IMG/VR virus record: IMGVR_UViG_2529292873_000017
Strand: one strand, 5' to 3'
From: a virus
Lineage: Duplodnaviria; Heunggongvirae; Uroviricota; Caudoviricetes
Length of the DNA stretch: 13,542 nucleotides
Numbering within the stretch: position 1 is the first letter of the stretch; each line of letters starts with the position of its first letter. Below, piece after piece: positions 1-13,542 of the stretch. The position numbers and the translations under genes are program-made. Below the pieces are notes generated by a model that worked only from the letters and a program-made list of their open reading frames with translations, had not been told where the DNA came from and searched no databases.

Positions 1-1131
1 TCAAATGACCAGTTTTTTCCATTCCTTACCGCGTGCGTCGTTGTAAATATCGGTCATTTTTTGATTCGAATGGCCTAGCAAAATTTTGGTATCAACCCCC
101 TGCTCTCTGAACAATCGCTCTGATAAAGATCTCTGCTCATGGAAAGAGGGAGGGGTGCCATTAGCACGCCAGTTGTAATCCACAGAATCCCGGGCTTTTT
201 TAAATGCAACGGTTAATGTTGCTGGCTTAACCATCCCGCCGCGCTTAGCTGTCCCTTTCGCGTGATGGTGGTGCAATAGCCACGGACTAAGAACGCAATC
301 GCGGCAGGATGACACCACATCATCCAGGGTGAGATTTAATTTATCGCAACGCAGAGCCAGAGGGATGGCAATCCGGGTTCCTGTTTTTTGCTGTTCGACA
401 TGAAGATAACCATCCCGGATATCCGAAAATTGCATTTTGCAAATATCTGAAAGGCGCTGGCCTGTCATCAGTGCCAGCAGCATACCGCGCTGTAAAAAGT
501 AACCATCCTTTTCCGCTGCGTTATAAATCATCATCCACTCATCAAAAGTCAGTCGCTGTCTTGATATCCGCACCTGCGGTTTTTTTGCCGATTCTGCAGG
601 GTTAAAGCCTGGCGGGACATCGCCCGTTTGCTGAGCTTCCCGGAAAACATCGATCAGTACTTTCCTGAAAATTTGTCCCATTCTGTTATGTCCTCTGGCC
701 TTGTACTCTTCCAGTACTGATACCACATCTTTTACGGTTATGGCATCTAACGGTCTGGTGCCAAAACGTTCATCAAATACCCTGAGAGGGGCCGCTTTCT
801 GTTTCAGCGTGTTGAGTTTGATCTCGCCGTTTTCATATCTTTCCTGTTGAATTTTTCTGTAATTATTCAGAAAAATGGTAACGGTTGATGAACCGCCGGT
901 ATCACTAATAATTTTCTCCTGCAGACTGAGCATTTGTTCCATTTGCTGCCGGGCAAGACGGCTGTTCGCTTCTGCTGCAATAGTTTCTGCCAGTTTCTGG
1001 TCAATACTGCCGAGACCGTGATTTTTGCCTGTTATGGGATGCCTGTAACGCCAGTAAACTTTGTTATTTCTTTTGTCAAAATACGGAGATAATCCCGGAA
1101 CATCGGTTTTATATTTTCGCGGGCGCGCCAT
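1..1131 (-). CDS. int: Tyrosine recombinase / phage integrase (lambda Int family), 376 aa
   Basis: Complete ORF with stop at 1-3. C-terminal region carries integrase-like motifs (TGQR, HEQRSL, LLGH, DIY) alignable to lambda Int from memory. An excisionase-like gene overlaps its 5' end. Confidence 0.9.
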   Translation of the reverse strand: MARPRKYKTDVPGLSPYFDKRNNKVYWRYRHPITGKNHGLGSIDQKLAETIAAEANSRLARQQMEQMLSLQEKIISDTGGSSTVTIFLNNYRKIQQERYENGEIKLNTLKQKAAPLRVFDERFGTRPLDAITVKDVVSVLEEYKARGHNRMGQIFRKVLIDVFREAQQTGDVPPGFNPAESAKKPQVRISRQRLTFDEWMMIYNAAEKDGYFLQRGMLLALMTGQRLSDICKMQFSDIRDGYLHVEQQKTGTRIAIPLALRCDKLNLTLDDVVSSCRDCVLSPWLLHHHHAKGTAKRGGMVKPATLTVAFKKARDSVDYNWRANGTPPSFHEQRSLSERLFREQGVDTKILLGHSNQKMTDIYNDARGKEWKKLVI

Positions 1132-1357
1132 CTTCCAGTATCCTCTTCAAAGCAGGGTGATCTGTGGCGATCACCTCCGGCTTGTTTACCATTCCGACAA
1201 AGCGAGCTTGCGGATCCACTCGCCAGCGTCTTCCAACTTTTTTGGGGAGAGGAAATATCATTCCGGCTTTAGCGTATTTACTTAACGTACTCGGAGTTGG
1301 GACCGGTTCACTGAATTCCTCTTTTGCCCACTCAGTGAGCAGAATAAGTCTTGCCAT
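1109..1357 (-). CDS. xis: Excisionase (Xis-like), 82 aa
   Basis: Small basic ORF immediately upstream of int on the same strand, overlapping int by 23 nt as in the lambda xis-int arrangement. N-terminus MARLILLTEWAKEEF is typical of lambdoid excisionases. Confidence 0.8.
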   Translation of the reverse strand: MARLILLTEWAKEEFSEPVPTPSTLSKYAKAGMIFPLPKKVGRRWRVDPQARFVGMVNKPEVIATDHPALKRILEDGAPAKI

Positions 1358-1421
1358 GAGCGTCGTTCGCTAATCATGGTCGCCGCCACTATAGCTGGTG
1401 GGCAACGACCGGGGTTGAACA

Positions 1422-2270
1422 TTAAAAATCAGCCTGACTCGGGATCAGTTTTTGCCAGATAACTGAAACGTATTTTGCCTGGTAACGGGCGTCATCAAGT
1501 GCATTATGGCGCTCACCTTCGAATGGAATAGCCGTTCTGGCATCGAAGTCTATGGCTTTCCCCAGCTCAACGATTGTGCGTACATCGCGATCGTTGTAGT
1601 AACGCCACGGGCAGGGGATCCCCTGCCGTTCGTATGAACGGCGCAAAATCGTGTTGTCGAAGTTGGCTCCATTTCCCCAGACCTGAACAAAAAATTCACC
1701 GGAGTTTTCGTCGATAAATTCCCGCAATTGTAACAGTGCATCATCTAACGGGATTTCATCGGTCATAATGGCAGATTGCGCTTCGCGTGATTGCTTAAGC
1801 CACCATTTAATGGTGTCCCGATCAATGACTCCGCCAGCAGTTTCCAGATCGATAGTCTTACTAAATTCCGGTCCCATATCTCCGGTTTGCGGATCGAAAA
1901 ATATTGCACCTATTGAGATGATCGGGGCATCAGGATTTTTTCCCATGGTTTCAAGGTCGATCATTAGATGGTCACACGTCCTGCTGGTGGATGTGATTTC
2001 GTGATGACCGTTCACCTTAATTGGGTGATCTGCCGTCTCGCCAGTTTCATTATCGCTATTGTGATGCTGATTGCCGCCAGTGTTCTCCTTGTGTGGATGT
2101 TCAGCGCCTTCCATTTCCTCCGGATCATCTTCCTGAACTTCAACCTGATACTCTTCATCGAATGTTTCTTGGTATGTTGCGTCGCCCATCACCGCGCCAC
2201 AATCAGGGCAGTTGCCGCCGCCGGTCTGACCGCAGGCGGTGCAGGCTTTTTCCACTTCCTGTTGCGCCAC
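1422..2270 (-). CDS. DEDDh (DnaQ-like) 3'-5' exonuclease domain protein with N-terminal CxxC...CxxC zinc-ribbon and acidic linker; probably the 3' part of a larger disrupted gene
   Basis: Translation shows Exo I (MIDLETMG), Exo II (WGNGANFD) and Exo III (HNALDDARY) motifs. Starts at GTG, and the frame stays open ~60 nt further upstream, overlapping the next ORF in another frame. Confidence 0.7.
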
Positions 2271-3863
2271 TGGTTCAGGCTGTTTCGTTTCTGGCTCGTT
2301 TTGTAACGCATTTGGACGTTCTGTTCCGTTTCTTGCTGGTTCTGGTTCACAGAATCGCGGGTTTCAATCCCCTTCACCCATTTCGGATCATTCGGGTCGC
2401 TAATCCCTTCAACAAATTCACCACGTGATGCAGCAAGCAACTTATCGGCGTCAGGCTGGCTGATATTGGCTGCCTGCATAATTTTGTTTACTTCGTCAGC
2501 GGTAACTTTTACCGGCTCTGGTTGTTCGAATCTTCAGCGGTATCTACATTTTGCGGTAAGCCCGTGTATGTGCCATTTTTTCGGGCAAAATATTCTTCTT
2601 TTGTGATTTCAGTGGCCCGGCAGCCAGCGCCTTATCCAGACCAGAAAGTTTGTTTGCGCGACCGTATTTTTCGCCATCCTTGTCGGTGAAGAGGAAGTAG
2701 AACGGCCCCTCACGCTCTACAGATGGTTCGACTTCCACTTTGCATTCGGTTTTTTCGTTGTCCGGAATTGCCGTTTCCACTGCATCAGTTTCTGGTACTG
2801 GCGACGAGAGAGTGTCAGTTGCGCTCTGATTTGTTCCTTCATCTTCAAACACGCCCTTTGTCGTCAGGTATTCAGTATATTTGTTCAGTGCACAGGGATC
2901 TTTGTGAATATCGATCGGACGTTCGCGAACAAGGCCAAAAATAGTCTGACGGTCATAGCCAAGTGCTTCGGGCTGTTTGCGCATTGATGCTGAGATACGC
3001 TTCCAGTCTTCGCGATCCTTGTCGATAACCTCATTTGTCGCCCAGCGATGGATGGTACCGTCAATGTTTCCTGCATCCACATCACCGGGCCAGAGGGCGC
3101 AGGCCAGTTCGTCATCCAGTGTTTTCCATGTCTGCTTATATTCGCGGCGAATGGCAACAGTGACAGCCCCGGTTTTTTCAGCAGCGTTTTCAGTGTCTGT
3201 TGGTTGACTCTGGCGCGGGCGAGATCAACAACAGACGTGTATTTTCCGGTTTCCTTGCGTTCACCTTCGCGACGTTTTTTCCAGATGCGCATCTCTGCCT
3301 GAATTTCAGGCCATTTAGCGCCAGGCTCACATTTATGCTTAACCCACCCGATGGCATGCAGTTTAAGTTCAGGATACATGGCGTTAACTTCTGGCATTTT
3401 CATCAACGCTTCAACGATATGTCCGCCGAATGTTGCCATGTCTTCCTGTAGTAATTCCTGTGCGCTAATCACCATATCAACGGTGATGTTTTCGCATGTG
3501 TCGAACTTAACCATGACAGCGTTCTGTACTTCAGGGGACAGCTTGTCAAAAGTGACGTTCATCGGATCGGATTCAGTCTCGACCGGTACAAAGGAAGCTG
3601 ACTCCTCATCCCAGCGGTTTTCCTGCATATATTCGCATCCCAGGAATCGAGGGCAGGGCGGGGTATGCCGGGTTTATCCTCGCAGACAATAAATTTATAA
3701 GCGCAGTCCTGAGCTGCCGGGAATTGCTCCAGAAATTGCCAGTGAAATTTTGCGCGTGCGCGACGCTCATCACCGGCTTCAATGGCAGTGGCTACAGCAC
3801 AGCGCCTTCTTCCTTTATTGCCTGTTCGTCAGGAATAGCGGCGCAAATAAAGACTTTACTCAT
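2189..3863 (-). pseudogene. Frame-disrupted early-left region upstream of the exonuclease domain: protein-like segments in at least four frames that overlap each other
   Basis: Minus-strand ORFs 3863-3792, ~3840-3560, 3628-2885, 3235/3080-2544 and 2479-2189 overlap by 80-350 nt in different frames. Each translates to non-repetitive protein-like sequence. A 7-T run sits at 2571-2577. Confidence 0.55.
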
Positions 3864-3956
3864 TTTGTTTTAACCTCATTACAGATTTAAGGGTGAACAA
3901 ATCCCTGCCATTGCTGGCATATAAGAATGAAATCGGATGTTTATTACGGAACTGTT

Positions 3957-4148: not shown

Positions 4149-4333
4149 TGCCAGCATCCTTTTTGTATCGGACGTAAACGGGCCAGCATTGAAAGAATGC
4201 ATATTTTATTTAATAACTCCCGTTCGTGTTTTCTCTTGTTAATGGCATCTTCAGTAAATACAGGGTTACTGATAGTGACACCAATTTCAAAACAACCTTC
4301 AGACGTATTAACGTTTGGTAATAACGTTTCCAT
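4145..4333 (-). CDS. dicB: Cell-division inhibitor DicB (MinC-activating), 62 aa
   Basis: Protein METLLPNVNTSEGCFEIGVTISNPVFTEDAINKRKHERELLNKICILSMLARLRPIQKGCWQ is near-identical to E. coli DicB as I recall it. AGGA lies 9 nt upstream of the ATG; dicF is upstream and ydfD downstream. Confidence 0.85.
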   Translation of the reverse strand: METLLPNVNTSEGCFEIGVTISNPVFTEDAINKRKHERELLNKICILSMLARLRPIQKGCWQ

Positions 4334-4506
4334 TATCGCGTCCTCAACAATGAATTTTGTGATGCAGTGCCTGGTGCCTCCAGGTGACGTTAACCAGTTA
4401 ACAATTAACGCCGGATACAGAGAATCCACCCATAACACTGTTTTTGGTTTAACTGTTCCGCGTGCGCTTAGCCGCATTCACCGCATCACAAAATTCACTT
4501 TAAAAA

Positions 4507-4560
4507 GGGCGGCAGAGCAGTTCACGGAGTAAAACTGATACCGCCAAACGTCACCAGAAA
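4507..4560 (-). ncRNA. dicF: DicF small regulatory RNA (Hfq-dependent, targets ftsZ mRNA)
   Basis: Minus-strand sequence TTTCTGGTGACGTTTGGCGGTATCAGTTTTACTCCGTGAACTGCTCTGCCGCCC followed by TTTTT matches my recollection of the 53-nt DicF, with a possible 1-nt difference. Lies directly upstream of dicB. Confidence 0.85.
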
Positions 4561-4892
4561 ATTGATAACAGAGGGCGTTGCAGCGGGGTTGTCACTTAAG
4601 CGTATGGTCAACCTGACAACCCGGTGTCCTCAACGGGGAAGGAATAACCCCGCCATACTTACCGCCGCGCCATTTCGCGGATTGCCACAACCGGAAGCGC
4701 ACGGTCGAATTAAATTTAACGACAGGCTATCTATGAACCAGCAACTTCGCCGTGCGCTTTCGCGTTATGCCTGACTTTTCAGGGAAATATCCTTTCAGTA
4801 AACTGTCAGTGCCGGATGTTCACCCGTGTCCGGCGCACGCACTCCACTTCACCCGTGGAGAACTCCTTAATTACCAACCCTCAGGAGGGTGA

Positions 4893-5752: not shown

Positions 5753-5821
5753 GTCGGCTCCTTGTGGTTGTGTGCCTGCTTTTAACCACGTCAGGCGAGG
5801 TGGTATCCTCTGAGGGGTCTG

Positions 5822-7631: not shown

Positions 7632-8184
7632 AAAGGTGAAAACCGGCAGTTCATCCAGTAAGTCAGTATTGACCTGGCTTGCTGATATGTGCGGTGCCGA
7701 TTTGTGTGCATACCCGTCTGTATCTGCACTGGCAGAAGTAACGGAACTGAACAAAAAGACTGTGCAGGACAGCTTACGACACCTGATGGAGATTGGGTTA
7801 ATTGTTGATACCGGTGAGAGAAAAGGCAGAACAAAGCAAATTGTGGTGTACCGACTTATCGGTGTAGAAGAAAGTGTTGCCGAGCCTGAATACACCCAAA
7901 AACGGGAGTCTTTAAAGGTGGGTACAATTGGTGCTGTTAATAAAAACAGTACCGAAAATGGTTATGTTTCAGCACAAAACAGACCCAAAAACAGAACTCT
8001 TAGCTGCATGGAAAATAACCAAAGACACCCAAATTTTCCATCAAAGACACCCAAAAACGGATCACGGAACCCAAAGGAACCCAAAGAATTAAACCCCACA
8101 CATAACGCGCGCGAGAGTGCTCCGACCAGTGAGCAGGAAGTTTTGTCGTTACAGGCAGCCCCCCTGTATTCCTGTATGGCCTGA
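7603..8184 (+). CDS. Replication initiator (O-like, N-terminal winged-helix) with low-complexity linker encoded by iteron-like repeats, 193 aa
   Basis: ATG at 7603 preceded by AGGGGG. N-terminus MSIDALRWAKKVKTG... looks HTH-like. Phased ACCCAAA repeats lie inside the coding sequence. Confidence 0.65.
   Translation: MSIDALRWAKKVKTGSSSSKSVLTWLADMCGADLCAYPSVSALAEVTELNKKTVQDSLRHLMEIGLIVDTGERKGRTKQIVVYRLIGVEESVAEPEYTQKRESLKVGTIGAVNKNSTENGYVSAQNRPKNRTLSCMENNQRHPNFPSKTPKNGSRNPKEPKELNPTHNARESAPTSEQEVLSLQAAPLYSCMA
7980..8090. repeat. Iteron-like direct repeats (candidate replication origin) inside the initiator gene
   Basis: ACCCAAA cores at 7983, 8027, 8049, 8069 and 8079, spaced 44, 22, 20 and 10 bp apart. 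AAAGACACCCAAA occurs twice and GGAACCCAAAG/GAACCCAAAG is tandem. The flank at ~7931-7980 is AT-rich. Confidence 0.5.
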
Positions 8185-8207
8185 GCGAACCCATCGGAAA
8201 ATTCCCG

Positions 8208-9092
8208 ATGAGCGATAGCTGGTATCCGTCACGGGATTTTCGACGACGGGCTGCGTTGTGGGGGATGGCTTTGCCGGAGACAGAATTTACACCTGCTGAA
8301 CTTGCCGCCTTCCGGGACTACTGGGCAGCGGAGGGGAAAGTGTTTACGCAGGTTCAGTGGGAGCAGAAATTTGCCCGTCACGTGCAGCACGTCAGGGCAC
8401 AGGTAAAACCAGTCAGCAAGGGGGTAAGCCATGCAGCACCAGGTGGCACCGCATCACGGGCAGTTCAGGAAATCCGGGCTGCACGTGAACAGTGGGAACG
8501 TGAAAACGGATTTATCAGCAACGGAAACGGCCTGGAAGCTGTGGGAACTTATGGGGGAGGTGTATTCGAACCGCTGGATCAGAAGAACGGGGCTGCGCCG
8601 TCGAAGCTCTGGATTGCTCAGATTGGCGCGATGACTGAACAGCAAATCCGGCAGGTCTGCCGTCAGTGCATGGACCGCTGCCGGGCGGGTGAAACGTGGC
8701 CTCCGGACCTGGCTGAGTTTGTGGCGTTGATTTCGGAGAGCGGGGCAAATCCATTTGGCCTGACGGTGGATGCCGTGATGGAGGAGTACCGTCGCTGGAG
8801 GAATGAATCCTGGCGGTACGACGGGAGTGATAAATACCCGTGGCCACAGCCGGTGCTGTACCACATTTGCCTCGAGATGCGTTCAAAGGGGATTGAGCGC
8901 CAGATGACCGAAGGGGAGTTAAAACGGCTTGCAGAACGGCAACTGACGAAATGGGCAAAGCATGTTGGTAACGGCCTGAGTGTTCCGCCAGTCCGGCGAC
9001 AACTGGCAGCACCCAAACGCCCGCCAGGGCCAACGCCAATTGAGTTGCTGAAACAGGAATATGAGCGCCGGAAGGCGGCCGGTTTTGTCTGA
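8208..9092 (+). CDS. DnaT-like (primosomal protein I domain) replication protein, 294 aa
   Basis: Segment DFRRRAALWGMALPETEFTPAELAAFRDYWAAEGKVFTQVQWEQKFARHV resembles the C-terminal region of E. coli DnaT as I recall it. Confidence 0.65.
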   Translation: MSDSWYPSRDFRRRAALWGMALPETEFTPAELAAFRDYWAAEGKVFTQVQWEQKFARHVQHVRAQVKPVSKGVSHAAPGGTASRAVQEIRAAREQWERENGFISNGNGLEAVGTYGGGVFEPLDQKNGAAPSKLWIAQIGAMTEQQIRQVCRQCMDRCRAGETWPPDLAEFVALISESGANPFGLTVDAVMEEYRRWRNESWRYDGSDKYPWPQPVLYHICLEMRSKGIERQMTEGELKRLAERQLTKWAKHVGNGLSVPPVRRQLAAPKRPPGPTPIELLKQEYERRKAAGFV

Positions 9093-9126
9093 GTTGAGAA
9101 GTAATTTTTACCGGGAGGAAAATTTA

Positions 9127-9861
9127 ATGGAAACCGTTTTTGACGCACTGAAAGCGATGGGAAAAGCCACGTCGGTATAGCTGGCTGCGCGACTTGATAT
9201 CAGTCGTGAAGAAGTACTGAACGAGCTGTGGGAACTGAAAAAGGCTGGCTTCGTTGATAAAAGCGTATACACCTGGCGTGTGGCTGATAACAACGTTCAG
9301 CAGGAACAGCCAGCGCCAGAAGAAACCACCACGGCAACAGAAGCGAAAATCTCAGAGTGCGATTTAACCGCGACGATTGAACAACGCGGACCACAAACGG
9401 CGGATGAACTGGCTACGCTGTTCGGTACAACATCCCGCAAAGTTGCTTCAACGCTGGCAATGGCAATCAGCAAAGGTCGTCTGATTCGCGTAAATCAGGA
9501 CGGTAAAATTCGTTACTGCATACCAGGTGATAATTTACCGGCAGAGCCGAAAGTTGAATCGGTAACGGAAACCGATGGTAAAGCCTTTCCTCAGCCAGCA
9601 GGTGTTGCGTTACCGGTACAGAAAGATGCAACACAGGAAGATATTAAAACAGAAACTGTGGCGGACATTGTGCAGTCGCTGCCATCGTTTACTGCAACGC
9701 GAGAAGATGATTTGATTTTGCCATCGCTGCATATGGCAAATCGCGAACTGCGTAGGGCGAAGAATCATGTCCAGAAGTGGGAGCGAGTCTGCGCCGCGCT
9801 GCGGGAGCTGAACAAGCACCGGGATATGGTTGCCGGGATTTGTCGGAAGTCCGGGCAATGA
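9127..9861 (+). pseudogene. Phage protein gene (DUF1627-like) interrupted by an in-frame amber codon at 9178-9180
   Basis: ATG at 9127 gives METVFDALKAMGKATSV, then TAG. The same frame continues open to 9861 with protein-like sequence ([25 protein letters not shown]...). A single CAG to TAG change would explain it. Confidence 0.6.
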
Positions 9862-9990: not shown

Positions 9991-10302
9991 GTGATTTTCA
10001 CCAGTCAACAAAATATCCGTAGCGCGATAACGGTCAAAAATTATGGCGCTGACACTTTTGTGCCACTGGAGATGACTGTACCTAAGTTCAGGGGAGAAGA
10101 ACACGTCCGGTGGGATGGTCGGGCCAGATTTAAAGGGCAGGTCATGGCTCCAGCCTGTACGCTGGCAATGGAGGCTGCCTGGCGGGAAATTGATATGGGA
10201 ACCACGCCACTCAGGGATTTACTGCCGGTCCAGAGAATAAATTCCTGTTACGGTTACACCACTGTGATCTTGCAAGTGCAGGAAAGTAGGTCTACACGGT
10301 AA
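9991..10302 (+). CDS. Hypothetical protein; start uncertain, may be fused by frameshift to a small upstream ORF (9858-10022)
   Basis: Open frame with GTG at 9991 and ATG at 10072. It overlaps a 54-aa ORF whose ATG overlaps the stop of the preceding gene (ATGA at 9858). Confidence 0.35.
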   Translation: MIFTSQQNIRSAITVKNYGADTFVPLEMTVPKFRGEEHVRWDGRARFKGQVMAPACTLAMEAAWREIDMGTTPLRDLLPVQRINSCYGYTTVILQVQESRSTR

Positions 10303-10529
10303 CGCGAGTGCGTGTAACTTTTGATGTCATTCCCGTAGAAACACCGGACAAATTTTCGCTGACAGGTCATGCAGAAGGTATAAATCTGCAGATTATGGAC
10401 AATTACGGATATCCGGCAAGAGCCGGAAAAAGCATGCCGCCTCTAATTCTCAGTGGAAGATGGACTTGATTATACTCATTGCATTGTCAGAAATAGTTAT
10501 CCATTAAAGGCTGGCTATTCCAAACAGGA

Positions 10530-10555
10530 TGTTGATTACAAAAATGTAATCAACA
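10530..10555. repeat. Perfect 11-bp-arm inverted repeat TGTTGATTACA-aaaa-TGTAATCAACA upstream of the binding-protein gene
   Basis: Read directly from the sequence. It lies in the AT-rich region ~165 bp upstream of the ATG at 10721. Confidence 0.6.
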
Positions 10556-10720
10556 TGTAAGGTTTATACTCTTCAATATGCGTATAATTTTCCTTATTTT
10601 GTTGACTTTAAATAACAAGCTATGCACGAGGTAAAGTCGGATAAGTTTATCTGGATGTAATATATATTATTTGTAGTGTTTATAACTTTATTTCATGATA
10701 ACCAATAAAAGGAGTTTTTT

Positions 10721-11479
10721 ATGAGGAACATAATGGCAGGTTTTTTAATATTCCTGTCTTCTGCTGCTTATGCTGATATCAATCTGTATGGTCCTGGTGG
10801 CCCGCATACAGCCTTGCTTGATGCAGCCAAACTTTATGCCGAAAAAACAGGTATTATAGTGAACGTTCATTACGGCCCACAGAACAAATGGAATGAAGAT
10901 GCCAAAAAAAATGCAGATATCTTGTTTGGCGCATCAGAACAATCTGCTCTGGCTATCATTCGGGACCATAAAGACAGCTTCAGTGAAAAAGATATTCAGC
11001 CTCTTTATCTGCGAAAAAGTATTTTACTGGTAAAGAAAGGTAATCCTAAAAATATCCGGAGTATTGACGACCTGACCAGACCTGGGATTGGCGTAATTGT
11101 TAATGATGGTGGTGGTACCAGTAATACATCAGGCACTGGCGTCTGGGAAGATATTGCCGGACGTAAAGGGAATATAGAAACTGTCGCCGCAATCCGAAAA
11201 AATATTATTTTATATGCGCCCAATAGCGGAACTGCACGTAAGGCTCTTGAGAATCAGCCTGGAGCAGATGTCTGGATAACCTGGGCTGACTGGGCAGCCA
11301 GTAATCCAGAAATTGGTGATGTCGTGGAAATAGCGCCAGACTACGTGATATGGCGTGATATGAACATTACAGTACGTCAGGATGCAAATGATGAAACCCG
11401 TCGATTTGCAGAATGGCTACAAACCGATGAAGCGGCGCCTGCATTCAAAAAATATGGCTGGACCAGGAAAGGCACTTGA
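10721..11479 (+). CDS. Orphan periplasmic substrate-binding protein, ModA/oxyanion-binding-like, 252 aa with signal peptide
   Basis: SD AAAAGGAG 6 nt upstream of the ATG. N-terminal signal peptide MRNIMAGFLIFLSSAAYA. Loose resemblance to ModA, including the C-terminal AAPAFKKYGW versus ModA AAEIFKRYGF. AT-rich; no permease or ATPase gene adjacent. Confidence 0.65.
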   Translation: MRNIMAGFLIFLSSAAYADINLYGPGGPHTALLDAAKLYAEKTGIIVNVHYGPQNKWNEDAKKNADILFGASEQSALAIIRDHKDSFSEKDIQPLYLRKSILLVKKGNPKNIRSIDDLTRPGIGVIVNDGGGTSNTSGTGVWEDIAGRKGNIETVAAIRKNIILYAPNSGTARKALENQPGADVWITWADWAASNPEIGDVVEIAPDYVIWRDMNITVRQDANDETRRFAEWLQTDEAAPAFKKYGWTRKGT

Positions 11480-11485
11480 CATCCT

Positions 11486-11510
11486 CGTCCTTCAGGACGT
11501 GGATTCTTTT
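11486..11510 (+). terminator. Putative rho-independent terminator after the binding-protein gene
   Basis: Hairpin CGTCC-ttca-GGACG followed by TGGATTCTTTTT, a few nt after the stop codon. The stem is short. Confidence 0.4.
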
Positions 11511-11598
11511 TCCGGATGCCGCGCCAGCGGCATGTAGGGGCAGCTCACAAAACGGAAAAAATTGTACGCTAAGCCTCGCCAGGTGAACTGAATTCATT

Positions 11599-11622
11599 CC
11601 GATATGGGAATTCCCATATCGG
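11599..11622. repeat. Perfect 24-bp palindrome CCGATATGGGAATTCCCATATCGG
   Basis: Read directly from the sequence. Centred on GAATTC, ~190 bp upstream of the hok-like start. Confidence 0.6.
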
Positions 11623-11814
11623 GCGAAAACGGTTTGCTGTAACGGCAGAGTTAAGTAGGATTGCTGCGGGTGCTTGAGGCTATCTGCCTCGGGCATGAAC
11701 ACCAACGGCAGATAGATAAAAGCCCCACCCGACTATAAATCGAAGTGAGGCCCCTATATGCTCGTCACATATAGATTGCCTCTTACGGACCGAAAGGTCA
11801 AGGAGAAGCAGGCT

Positions 11815-11970
11815 ATGAAGCAGCAAAAGGCGATGTTAATCGCCCTGATCGTCATCTGTTTAACCGTCATAGTGACGGCACTGGTAACGAGGAAAGACCT
11901 CTGCGAGGTACGAATCCGAACCGGCCAGACGGAGGTCGCTGTCTTCACAGCTTACGAACCTGAGGAGTAA
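11815..11970 (+). CDS. hokD: Hok/Gef-family type I toxin (HokD/RelF-like), 51 aa
   Basis: Protein MKQQKAMLIALIVICLTVIVTALVTRKDLCEVRIRTGQTEVAVFTAYEPEE matches Hok-family toxins and my recollection of HokD/RelF. AAGGAG 9 nt upstream. An in-frame upstream ATG at 11758 would add 19 residues. Confidence 0.8.
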   Translation: MKQQKAMLIALIVICLTVIVTALVTRKDLCEVRIRTGQTEVAVFTAYEPEE

Positions 11971-12038
11971 GAGACCAGGCGGGGGAGAAATCCCTCGCCA
12001 CCTCTGATGTGTCAGGCATCCTCAACGCACCCGCACTT

Positions 12039-12066
12039 AACCCGCTTCGGCGGGTTTTTGTTTTTA
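12039..12066 (+). terminator. Rho-independent terminator at the 3' end of the hok transcript
   Basis: AACCCGC-ttcg-GCGGGTT hairpin followed by TTTTTGTTTTTATTTT. Confidence 0.75.
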
Positions 12067-12448: not shown

Positions 12449-12517
12449 TGAATTCATCTACAATTCAGCGCAGGGCTGAACCCCTGTTGAGTAACACTGT
12501 GCCACCGGAGAAAGCCG

Positions 12518-12796
12518 ATGGCGCAAAATTCCAGACTACACAATTCTGATAATTCAGCCGTCTTTGCCAGCAGGCACGGGCGGCGTTCTCATGCATTCAA
12601 ATCTGACTGGTTCCGGCACGCCCCATGCACTGAAGAACAGGCCGAATGGCTGATTCAGAACTACCGCAGACGTGGGTATGAGTTTAGGAAAGCCCTCAGC
12701 CTCGATTATCGTCACTGGATAATCTACGTCAGGCTGCCGTACTCCGAGCGCCCACCGCGTCCGTCCCGCACATTCCAGCAACGCATCTGGAGGTAA
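12518..12796 (+). CDS. Hypothetical basic Arg/His-rich protein, 92 aa
   Basis: ATG with GGAG 9 nt upstream. Its stop TAA lies 1 nt before the GTG start of the next ORF. Confidence 0.5.
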   Translation: MAQNSRLHNSDNSAVFASRHGRRSHAFKSDWFRHAPCTEEQAEWLIQNYRRRGYEFRKALSLDYRHWIIYVRLPYSERPPRPSRTFQQRIWR

Positions 12797-12797
12797 C

Positions 12798-13196
12798 GTG
12801 CGGGTATTACTTCGACCTGTTCCGGTACCGGAACTTGGGTTGGTGGTCCTTAAACCAGGCCGTGAATCCATGCAGGTATTCCATAACCCTCGAGTGCTTG
12901 TGGAGCCGGAGCCGAAAAGCATGCGCGGTCTGCCGTCCGGCATCGTACCTGCCGTTCACCAGCCGCTGGCGGAAGATAAATCACTACTGCCATTTTTCAG
13001 CGATGAGCGGGTGATCCGTGCTGCGGGTGGCGCTGGTGCACTGTCTGACTGGTTATTACGTCACGTGAAATCCTGCCAGTGGCCTCATGGTGATTATCAT
13101 CACAGCGAAACCGTCATTCACCGTTACGGTACCGGCGCGATGGTGTTGTGCTGGCACTGCGACAACCAGCTGCGGACCAGACATCCGAATCACTGA
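12798..13196 (+). CDS. Hypothetical protein with Cys/His-rich C-terminus (CQWPHGDYHH...CWHCDN), 132 aa; possibly the N-terminal part of a longer gene
   Basis: GTG start with GGAGGT 5 nt upstream. A downstream frame overlaps its end and is open from ~13087, suggesting a frameshift or overlapping genes. Confidence 0.45.
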   Translation: MRVLLRPVPVPELGLVVLKPGRESMQVFHNPRVLVEPEPKSMRGLPSGIVPAVHQPLAEDKSLLPFFSDERVIRAAGGAGALSDWLLRHVKSCQWPHGDYHHSETVIHRYGTGAMVLCWHCDNQLRTRHPNH

Positions 13197-13227
13197 GCAA
13201 CTTGCTCAACAGAATCTGGCAGCATGG

Positions 13228-13542
13228 ATGATTGACATCATCCGTCACGCAATGAATGGCGCACAGGAGCGTGAATTATCTCTGGCTGAATTATCCTGGT
13301 GGGCGGTCCGCAATCAGGTGGCGGACGCGCTACCGGAAGCGGTATTACGTCGTTCGCTGGGGTTGCGTGCGGAAAAAATCCGCTCCGTATACCGTGAAAG
13401 CGACATCGTACCGGGAGAACAGACCGCCACCAGCATACTGAAGCAGCGCACAAAAAATCTTGCGCCGCTGCCTCACGCCCACCAGCAAAACCCACCACAG
13501 GAAAAGACGGTGGTCAGCATTGCCGTTGATCCGGAGTCTCCG
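13228..13542 (+). CDS. Hypothetical protein, 5' part only (runs off the window end); may continue the preceding ORF after a frameshift
   Basis: Frame open from an ATG at 13228 to the last base of the window; the same frame is already open from ~13087. No obvious SD. Confidence 0.35.
   Translation, partial: MIDIIRHAMNGAQERELSLAELSWWAVRNQVADALPEAVLRRSLGLRAEKIRSVYRESDIVPGEQTATSILKQRTKNLAPLPHAHQQNPPQEKTVVSIAVDPESP

Follow-up and report, generated by a model that had tools for sequence, protein, structure and literature searches.

A frameshifted prophage exonuclease gene in a draft genome of Escherichia coli O157:H- very probably reflects collapsed paralogs rather than gene decay

Introduction

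The Pfam domains YdfE_N and YdfE_C are named after ydfE, a gene of the Qin cryptic prophage in Escherichia coli K-12. The K-12 gene is a truly truncated copy whose truncation is reproducible across assemblies, and it stands as an example of how a prophage gene may genuinely decay. The relatives of the gene that is the subject of this article are annotated as “exonuclease” or “3'-5' exonuclease,” and in some phage records as “exodeoxyribonuclease VIII,” a label that looks like a carry-over of annotation. A single E. coli genome may hold copies of the gene at as many as 10 places. Two publications describe what may happen to repeated DNA of this kind in unfinished genomes: a passage of PMC2847712 describes how collapsed repeats in newbler assemblies are flagged by their density of polymorphisms, and a passage of PMC7175801 reports that drafts of O157 genomes are fragmented or confused at homogeneous lambdoid prophages.

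Here, we describe a copy of the exonuclease gene that is broken by several frameshifts. It lies in a 13,542-nt stretch of prophage DNA, the whole of which was analysed and is referred to as the window. By our estimate, which is based on sequence comparison, there is a probability of roughly 0.9 that the frameshifted gene is the consensus of paralogs that were collapsed in a draft assembly, and not a real feature of the genome. At this place, the real DNA of the strain, H 2687, in all likelihood has an intact exonuclease gene of ~820 aa, as does its sister strain.

Materials and methods

Megablast was used to find relatives of the window among phage records and in 5,426 complete E. coli genomes. 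The closed genome of a sister strain, 493/89, was taken as a proxy for H 2687. The lesions were placed by reference to the intact genes of E. coli MS6198 and O157 493/89, and the positions of missing bases are counted after the plus-strand coordinates. The comparison drew on 16 natural alleles, among them ten on independent contigs with an ompW prophage and two in records of annotated phages or closed genomes. The coordinates of the DEDDh exonuclease domain in the window were converted arithmetically from the residues of the ortholog.

Results

The broken gene lies in an unfinished draft contig

The window is 100% identical to a part of the WGS contig AETZ01000169.1 (38,771 bp), which belongs to assembly GCA_000187325.3 of E. 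coli O157:H- strain H 2687; its source is thus an unfinished draft assembly. The contig ends 1 nt beyond the right end of the window, inside a DUF968 gene. In PMC3271280, AETZ00000000 is given as the accession of the H2687 genome, with a citation of Rump et al. (2011), whose title, as listed there, refers to draft genome sequences. No sequencing platform is named in the passages of PMC3309690 and PMC3271280 that cite these drafts.

Alignment to intact relatives showed that the exonuclease gene extends exactly from an ATG at 3863 to a stop codon at 1422 on the minus strand, upstream of xis and int and in the same transcriptional direction (Table 1). As deposited, the gene contains six frameshifting 1-nt deletions and one 3-nt in-frame gap, which divide it into seven segments. 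It is covered by five mechanically called ORFs on the minus strand (1422-2270, 2189-2479, 2544-3080, 2885-3628 and 3606-3782; 58-282 aa), one of which has been deposited as a hypothetical protein. A single uninterrupted ORF of ~820 codons is absent from the deposited sequence and is present once six bases and the 3-nt gap are restored: with one base added at each of the six frameshift sites and the 3-nt gap filled, the ORF comprises 2451 nt and 816 aa and has 0 internal stops.

Table 1. Coordinates of genes, domains and lesions in the left part of the window.
Feature	Position	Strand	Evidence or remarks
Integrase, 376 aa, intact	1..1131	minus	ORF list, alignment to 493/89; prophage integrated beside ompW
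Excisionase (xis), intact	1109..1357	minus	ORF list; exact protein at ten other ompW prophage loci
Prophage exonuclease gene (YdfE_N + YdfE_C + Rv2179c-like 3'-5' exonuclease)	1422..3863	minus	816-824 aa in intact relatives
Rv2179c-like DEDDh 3'-5' exonuclease domain, undisturbed	1455..1970	minus	PF16473, E 2.5e-67, residues 642-813 of intact ortholog
22-nt gap relative to 823-aa alleles	2316..2318	minus	Natural 21-nt in-frame variant plus 1 nt
1-nt deletion, reference codon 448	2527..2528	minus	A, T or G in copies
1-nt deletion, reference codon 418	2616..2617	minus	C, G or T in copies; at donor switch
3-nt in-frame gap, reference codons 330-331	2877..2878	minus	ATG or ATA in copies
Fragment ORF, 247 aa, EFX16751.1 (hypothetical protein)	2885..3628	minus	Deposited record; PF27432 match
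1-nt deletion, reference codon 224	3196..3197	minus	G, T or A in copies
1-nt deletion, reference codon 77	3634..3635	minus	A or G in copies
1-nt deletion, reference codon 22	3798..3799	minus	G, A or C in copies

The first-pass annotation of the window had already recognized a disrupted minus-strand coding region in this interval, flanked by an intact int and xis and with a clean DEDDh exonuclease domain at the C-terminal end, and the alignments bear this out. There is no mismatch to 493/89 before position 1250, and the segment 1422-2000, which holds the DEDDh domain, has 3 mismatches to the ortholog. It had also argued that the junction at 2530-2546 cannot be explained by one indel; deletions are indeed located at both 2616 and 2527, 89 nt apart, with a TAG codon at 2544-2546 between them. 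The alignment to intact exonuclease genes that it had recommended placed all six frameshifts. Its statement that the gene is split across at least four frames was right about the splitting and wrong about the number, since a strand has three frames and the lesions are six. The supposed run of seven T at 2571-2577, to which it had drawn attention as a place to inspect read pile-ups, is a run of six T at 2576-2581. The run is equally long in seven of the eight displayed alleles, all of which are intact, and the eighth (L013) differs by base changes only; the run is therefore not a lesion.

Miscalled homopolymers were ruled out as a cause of the frameshifts, as no deletion amounts to a mere change in homopolymer length and the T run is unchanged. 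The 22-nt gap at 2316 had been considered as a single frameshifting deletion. This view was revised, since O55:H7 alleles have a natural 21-nt deletion at this place, so that only 1 nt is anomalous; the in-frame length variant is found in the intact 816-aa allele of O55:H7 CB9615, and the sixth frameshift sits at its edge.

As judged from its Pfam matches, the gene is one for a large prophage protein that combines YdfE_N and YdfE_C with a C-terminal Rv2179c-like 3'-5' exonuclease domain; PF27430, PF27432 and PF16473 were all matched on ten orthologs. A RecE-type nuclease domain was not found in the intact ortholog, for which a Pfam scan with E-values up to 0.01 returned PF16473 and PF00929 only.

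The gene is intact in its relatives

One long gene occupies the interval in the relatives, with a length of 2472 nt (823 aa) in E. coli MS6198, phage HannyBb and O157 493/89. All 16 natural alleles, when extracted and translated, consist of one uninterrupted ORF of 816-824 aa with no internal stop. Among them are the ten that came from a search with the exact xis protein for further broken copies beside ompW; an intact gene of 823 or 824 aa was found in 10 of 10 distinct places. The five mechanical ORFs tile the region, as would be expected if the interval contained several short genes, or a gene decoded by programmed frameshifting. However, the boundaries of these ORFs are made by the deletions and their overlaps are out-of-frame read-through, and related phages with separate short genes at this place, a scenario raised by the first-pass annotation, were not seen among the 16 alleles. 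We consider the likelihood of such an arrangement to be close to negligible.

The broken allele itself is unique in our comparisons. The exonuclease block at 2300-3900 has no match of at least 99% identity in the 5,426 complete E. coli genomes, the best being 93.8%; for the replication block, too, no match reaches this level, and the best is 94.9%. By comparison, the single-copy paa block has matches of 100.0% (8 records shown), and 559 records match it at 99% or more. The exact 247-aa fragment protein EFX16751.1 (ECO2687_15503) is found on one contig only among ~15 billion proteins, and it was through this protein that the source of the window was identified. We found no independent assembly or related strain in which the lesions are reproduced, given the one contig, the 5,426 genomes and the intact gene of the sister strain 493/89. 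At two positions (2893-2894), none of the 16 alleles has the base of the window, as compared with six private frameshifts; positions 2531-2532 only seem to be private, due to a shift of the alignment beside the gap at 2527.

The anomalies follow a second prophage

The best full-length match to the window is the closed chromosome of 493/89, in which the prophage adjoins ompW and the exonuclease is intact with 823 aa. There are zero mismatches over most of the window (~9 kb). The differences, along with 18 indels, are grouped at 2000-3900, 4250-4800, 8000-9500 and 12750-13500, with an additional small cluster at 5770-5779. We also note that 493/89 is a classic sorbitol-fermenting O157:H- strain.

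A second lambdoid prophage in 493/89, located at tRNA-Ser, encodes an intact exonuclease of its own, together with replication genes and a hokD/DUF968 module. By blastn, the blocks common to this prophage and the window are 1406-3920, 4239-4788, 8083-9209, 9447-9825, 11577-12065 and 12497-13541. Nearly all differences between the window and 493/89 fall within the common blocks; the few that lie outside are at 8000-8082, 9210-9446 and 5770-5779, and the common block 11577-12065 is unaffected.

The differences also have the bases of the paralog. Besides the tRNA-Ser copy, which is the one paralog recovered from 493/89, two copies from O157:H7 served as proxies. As compared with the tRNA-Ser copy, the window has the paralog's base at 97 of the 113 positions at which it differs from the ortholog in the exonuclease block (1406-3920), and at all 55 such positions in the replication block (8083-9209), where a 3-nt gap at 8432 is likewise the paralog's state. 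Furthermore, the segment 2950-3350 is 98% identical to another copy of the gene in O157 genomes, versus an estimated ~91% to the ortholog.

Even the deletions are placed where the copies disagree. Mismatches between ortholog and paralog make up 13% of the columns in the exonuclease block, and of the isolated 1-nt deletions that the gene contains, five of five are at such columns (P ~4e-5), with the ortholog/paralog bases A/G, C/G, G/T, A/G and G/A. For the whole window, the corresponding figure is eight of ten single-base deletions (P ~3e-6). At the two others, 4447 and 13174, the ortholog and the recovered paralog agree, and these deletions would have to have other paralogs as their source. 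In the alignment of the 16 alleles, tri-allelic columns amount to 2.7% of the total and to three of the five deleted columns (P ~2e-4). The indel sites 2316, 2616 and 2877 are points at which the donor type switches, and the 3-nt gap at 2877 marks the switch from ortholog-type to paralog-type bases.

We also tried the number of mosaic segments as a test of blending. It did not discriminate, as the window has 10 donor segments and the natural alleles have 1-12 from the same set of donors.

Discussion

Prophage accessory genes often decay, and the prophage copy in the closed genome of 493/89 has genes annotated as pseudogenes, namely a DnaT-like gene and a fimbrial gene. It could therefore be thought that six frameshifts accumulated in place in a cryptic prophage gene of H 2687, with int and xis kept, and this was the explanation favored in the first-pass annotation, which ranked indel errors of the assembly second. 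However, neutral decay should yield many more substitutions than indels and should mark the flanks too. What we observe is about two private bases against six private deletions, deletions that are situated on columns of paralog mismatch, and zero nonsense mutations in the repaired gene. The flanks (~9 kb) are mostly free of substitutions relative to 493/89, and this leaves no time for six indels and ~110 substitutions to have accumulated in 2.4 kb. Furthermore, the allele is missing from the 5,426 complete genomes and its fragment protein is confined to one contig. We consider decay in place to be highly improbable, and of the two causes named in the first-pass annotation it is the assembly error that agrees with lesions on paralog-variable columns. 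Its argument that intact neighbors speak for real decay does not hold either, because single-copy DNA, such as int and xis, assembles correctly in drafts, whereas the broken gene is multi-copy.

Recombination among the lambdoid prophages of O157 strains is established, and the natural alleles of the exonuclease gene are themselves mosaics. We therefore also considered a real gene conversion between prophages, by which the ompW copy was converted in patches and the frameshifts were caused by the recombination or by separate sequencing errors. Such a process would also yield variant bases of the paralog type, but it would not remove exactly the mismatched base, as is seen at eight of the ten sites. 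Nor would we expect it to produce the same syndrome in four blocks (1406-3920, 4239-4788, 8083-9209 and 12497-13541), with the contig end inside the last of them, and no comparable allele is found in the other genomes (5,426 complete E. coli). Gene conversion is thus an improbable explanation. A version in which H 2687 truly carries the allele, as the product of fine-scale conversion between prophages in which mismatched bases were lost from the heteroduplex, is in our opinion quite improbable. If true, it would document in a natural strain how error-prone recombination of lambdoid prophages residing in one genome can inactivate a gene in one step.

We favor the hypothesis that paralogs were collapsed during the assembly. 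To account for the observed source contig, paralog bases, deletion sites, confinement to multi-copy blocks and intact genes elsewhere, we infer that the assembler stacked copies of the gene (~90% identical) into one contig, drawing on reads of the ompW prophage and of at least one further lambdoid prophage. The consensus at columns where the copies disagree would then have alternated between the bases of ortholog and paralog. At some columns without a majority base it would have emitted none, which would appear as a one-base deletion. Rump and co-workers are said to have used 454 pyrosequencing and Newbler assembly, and the flow-space averaging of this combination would drop the base at a mixed column. 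EFX16751.1 and other proteins deposited from the contig are probably artefactual fragments.

The observation is chiefly of value as a methodological warning. Where a multi-copy prophage module of a draft EHEC genome seems to hold a pseudogene, the assembler may have created it, and intact single-copy neighbors are no guarantee against this. The analysis also offers a cheap and reusable diagnostic, in which the region is set against a closed sister genome and its paralog is located there, after which it is asked whether the variant bases are those of the paralog and whether the indels fall on columns where the copies disagree.

Comparison with known systems

Among the described systems, the gene is most similar to the exonucleases of lambdoid prophages, such as WP_000048414.1 of O157 493/89 and WP_022645593.1 of MS6198, which have the same trio of YdfE_N, YdfE_C and Rv2179c-like domains. 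It has the same place between xis and the DUF1482/dicB genes of the ompW prophage, its 3' 900 nt are nearly identical, and the repaired protein has the full length of 816 aa. Unlike these exonucleases, the copy in the window contains six frameshifts and a blend of ortholog and paralog alleles.

The gene shares its early-left-operon position in a lambdoid prophage and the “exonuclease” annotation with RecE, or exodeoxyribonuclease VIII, but the only nuclease fold detected by Pfam in its ortholog is the C-terminal DEDDh fold of the Rv2179c-like/RNase_T type. It belongs to the same gene family as ydfE of the Qin prophage. However, the K-12 gene is truncated, whereas the lesions in the window are one-base deletions at paralog-variable sites on a single draft contig.

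In contrast, the window has much in common with the consensus errors of collapsed repeats. It originates from a draft WGS contig that ends in a repeat, its anomalies are almost wholly situated in multi-copy prophage modules, its variant bases are those of the paralog and its indels lie on columns of disagreement between copies. It differs from the usual collapsed repeat, which forms a separate contig of high depth, in that the merged paralogs continue into unique sequence.

Apparently Blended and Genuine Disruptions Outside the Exonuclease Gene

The replication block at 8083-9209, which contains the DnaT-like/O and P genes, shows a blend like that of the exonuclease gene. All 55 differences between the window and the orthologous ompW prophage in the closed genome of the sister strain 493/89 correspond to the base of the paralogous prophage at tRNA-Ser. 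The 3-nt gap at 8432 has an identical state in this paralog, and the 1-nt deletion at 8579 falls on a column where ortholog and paralog mismatch. The closed genome of 493/89 also has its DnaT-like gene annotated as frameshifted, so the artefact here may stand alongside a true pseudogene.

The block at 4239-4788 is likewise common to the window and the paralogous prophage, and the sequence of the DicF small RNA located inside it may therefore also be blended. Compared with the ortholog in 493/89, DicF in the window carries insertions at 4513 and 4529-4530, with deletions at 4447 and 4770 close by.

At the other end of the window, the block from hokD to the DUF968 gene (12497-13542) begins to diverge from the ortholog at approximately 12750, with the base of the paralog at 18 of 37 differences and single bases missing at 13174 and 13194. 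This repeat is where the source contig terminates, 1 nt past the window end. The short stretch immediately upstream of the ydfC start (5770-5779) differs from 493/89 by one 2-nt deletion, one 1-nt deletion and three mismatches, for which no counterpart was found in the single paralog examined, the tRNA-Ser prophage.

Features discussed in the text and their coordinates
Feature	Window	Strand	Remarks
DicF sRNA	4507-4559	-	Rfam RF00039, 73.7 bits, full length; inside block 4239-4788
Fimbrial-protein gene	~10060-10600		493/89 locus (L003) 11062-11595; upstream of paa; annotated in 493/89 as frameshifted, with internal stop
sok antitoxin RNA	11668-11817	+	RF01794, 103.9 bits; adjoins hokD toxin gene

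The sok/hokD region has zero mismatches to 493/89, even though a paralog with about 89% identity exists for the block at 11577-12065, which overlaps sok. The fimbrial gene stretch is also mismatch-free against the closed genome, and most of it (from 10300 on) has 100.0% matches in other genomes. From these sequence comparisons, the fimbrial gene looks like a genuine and reproducible pseudogene, unlike the exonuclease gene.

Natural Variation and Naming of the Exonuclease

The exonuclease gene also has a natural in-frame 21-nt length polymorphism (window 2296-2340; 1793-4243 in L007, an intact relative) in the Q/E/N/P-rich linker that joins the YdfE and exonuclease domains. The allele encodes 816 aa in O55:H7 CB9615 and RM12579 and 823 aa in most others, with 824 aa at one locus (L016). 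Several phage records (e.g., OV696610.1, PV340562.1, ON470612.1) name this gene “exodeoxyribonuclease VIII.” Pfam identified no RecE-type domain, only the DEDDh Rv2179c-like/RNase_T domain, and the label is thus probably an annotation carry-over.
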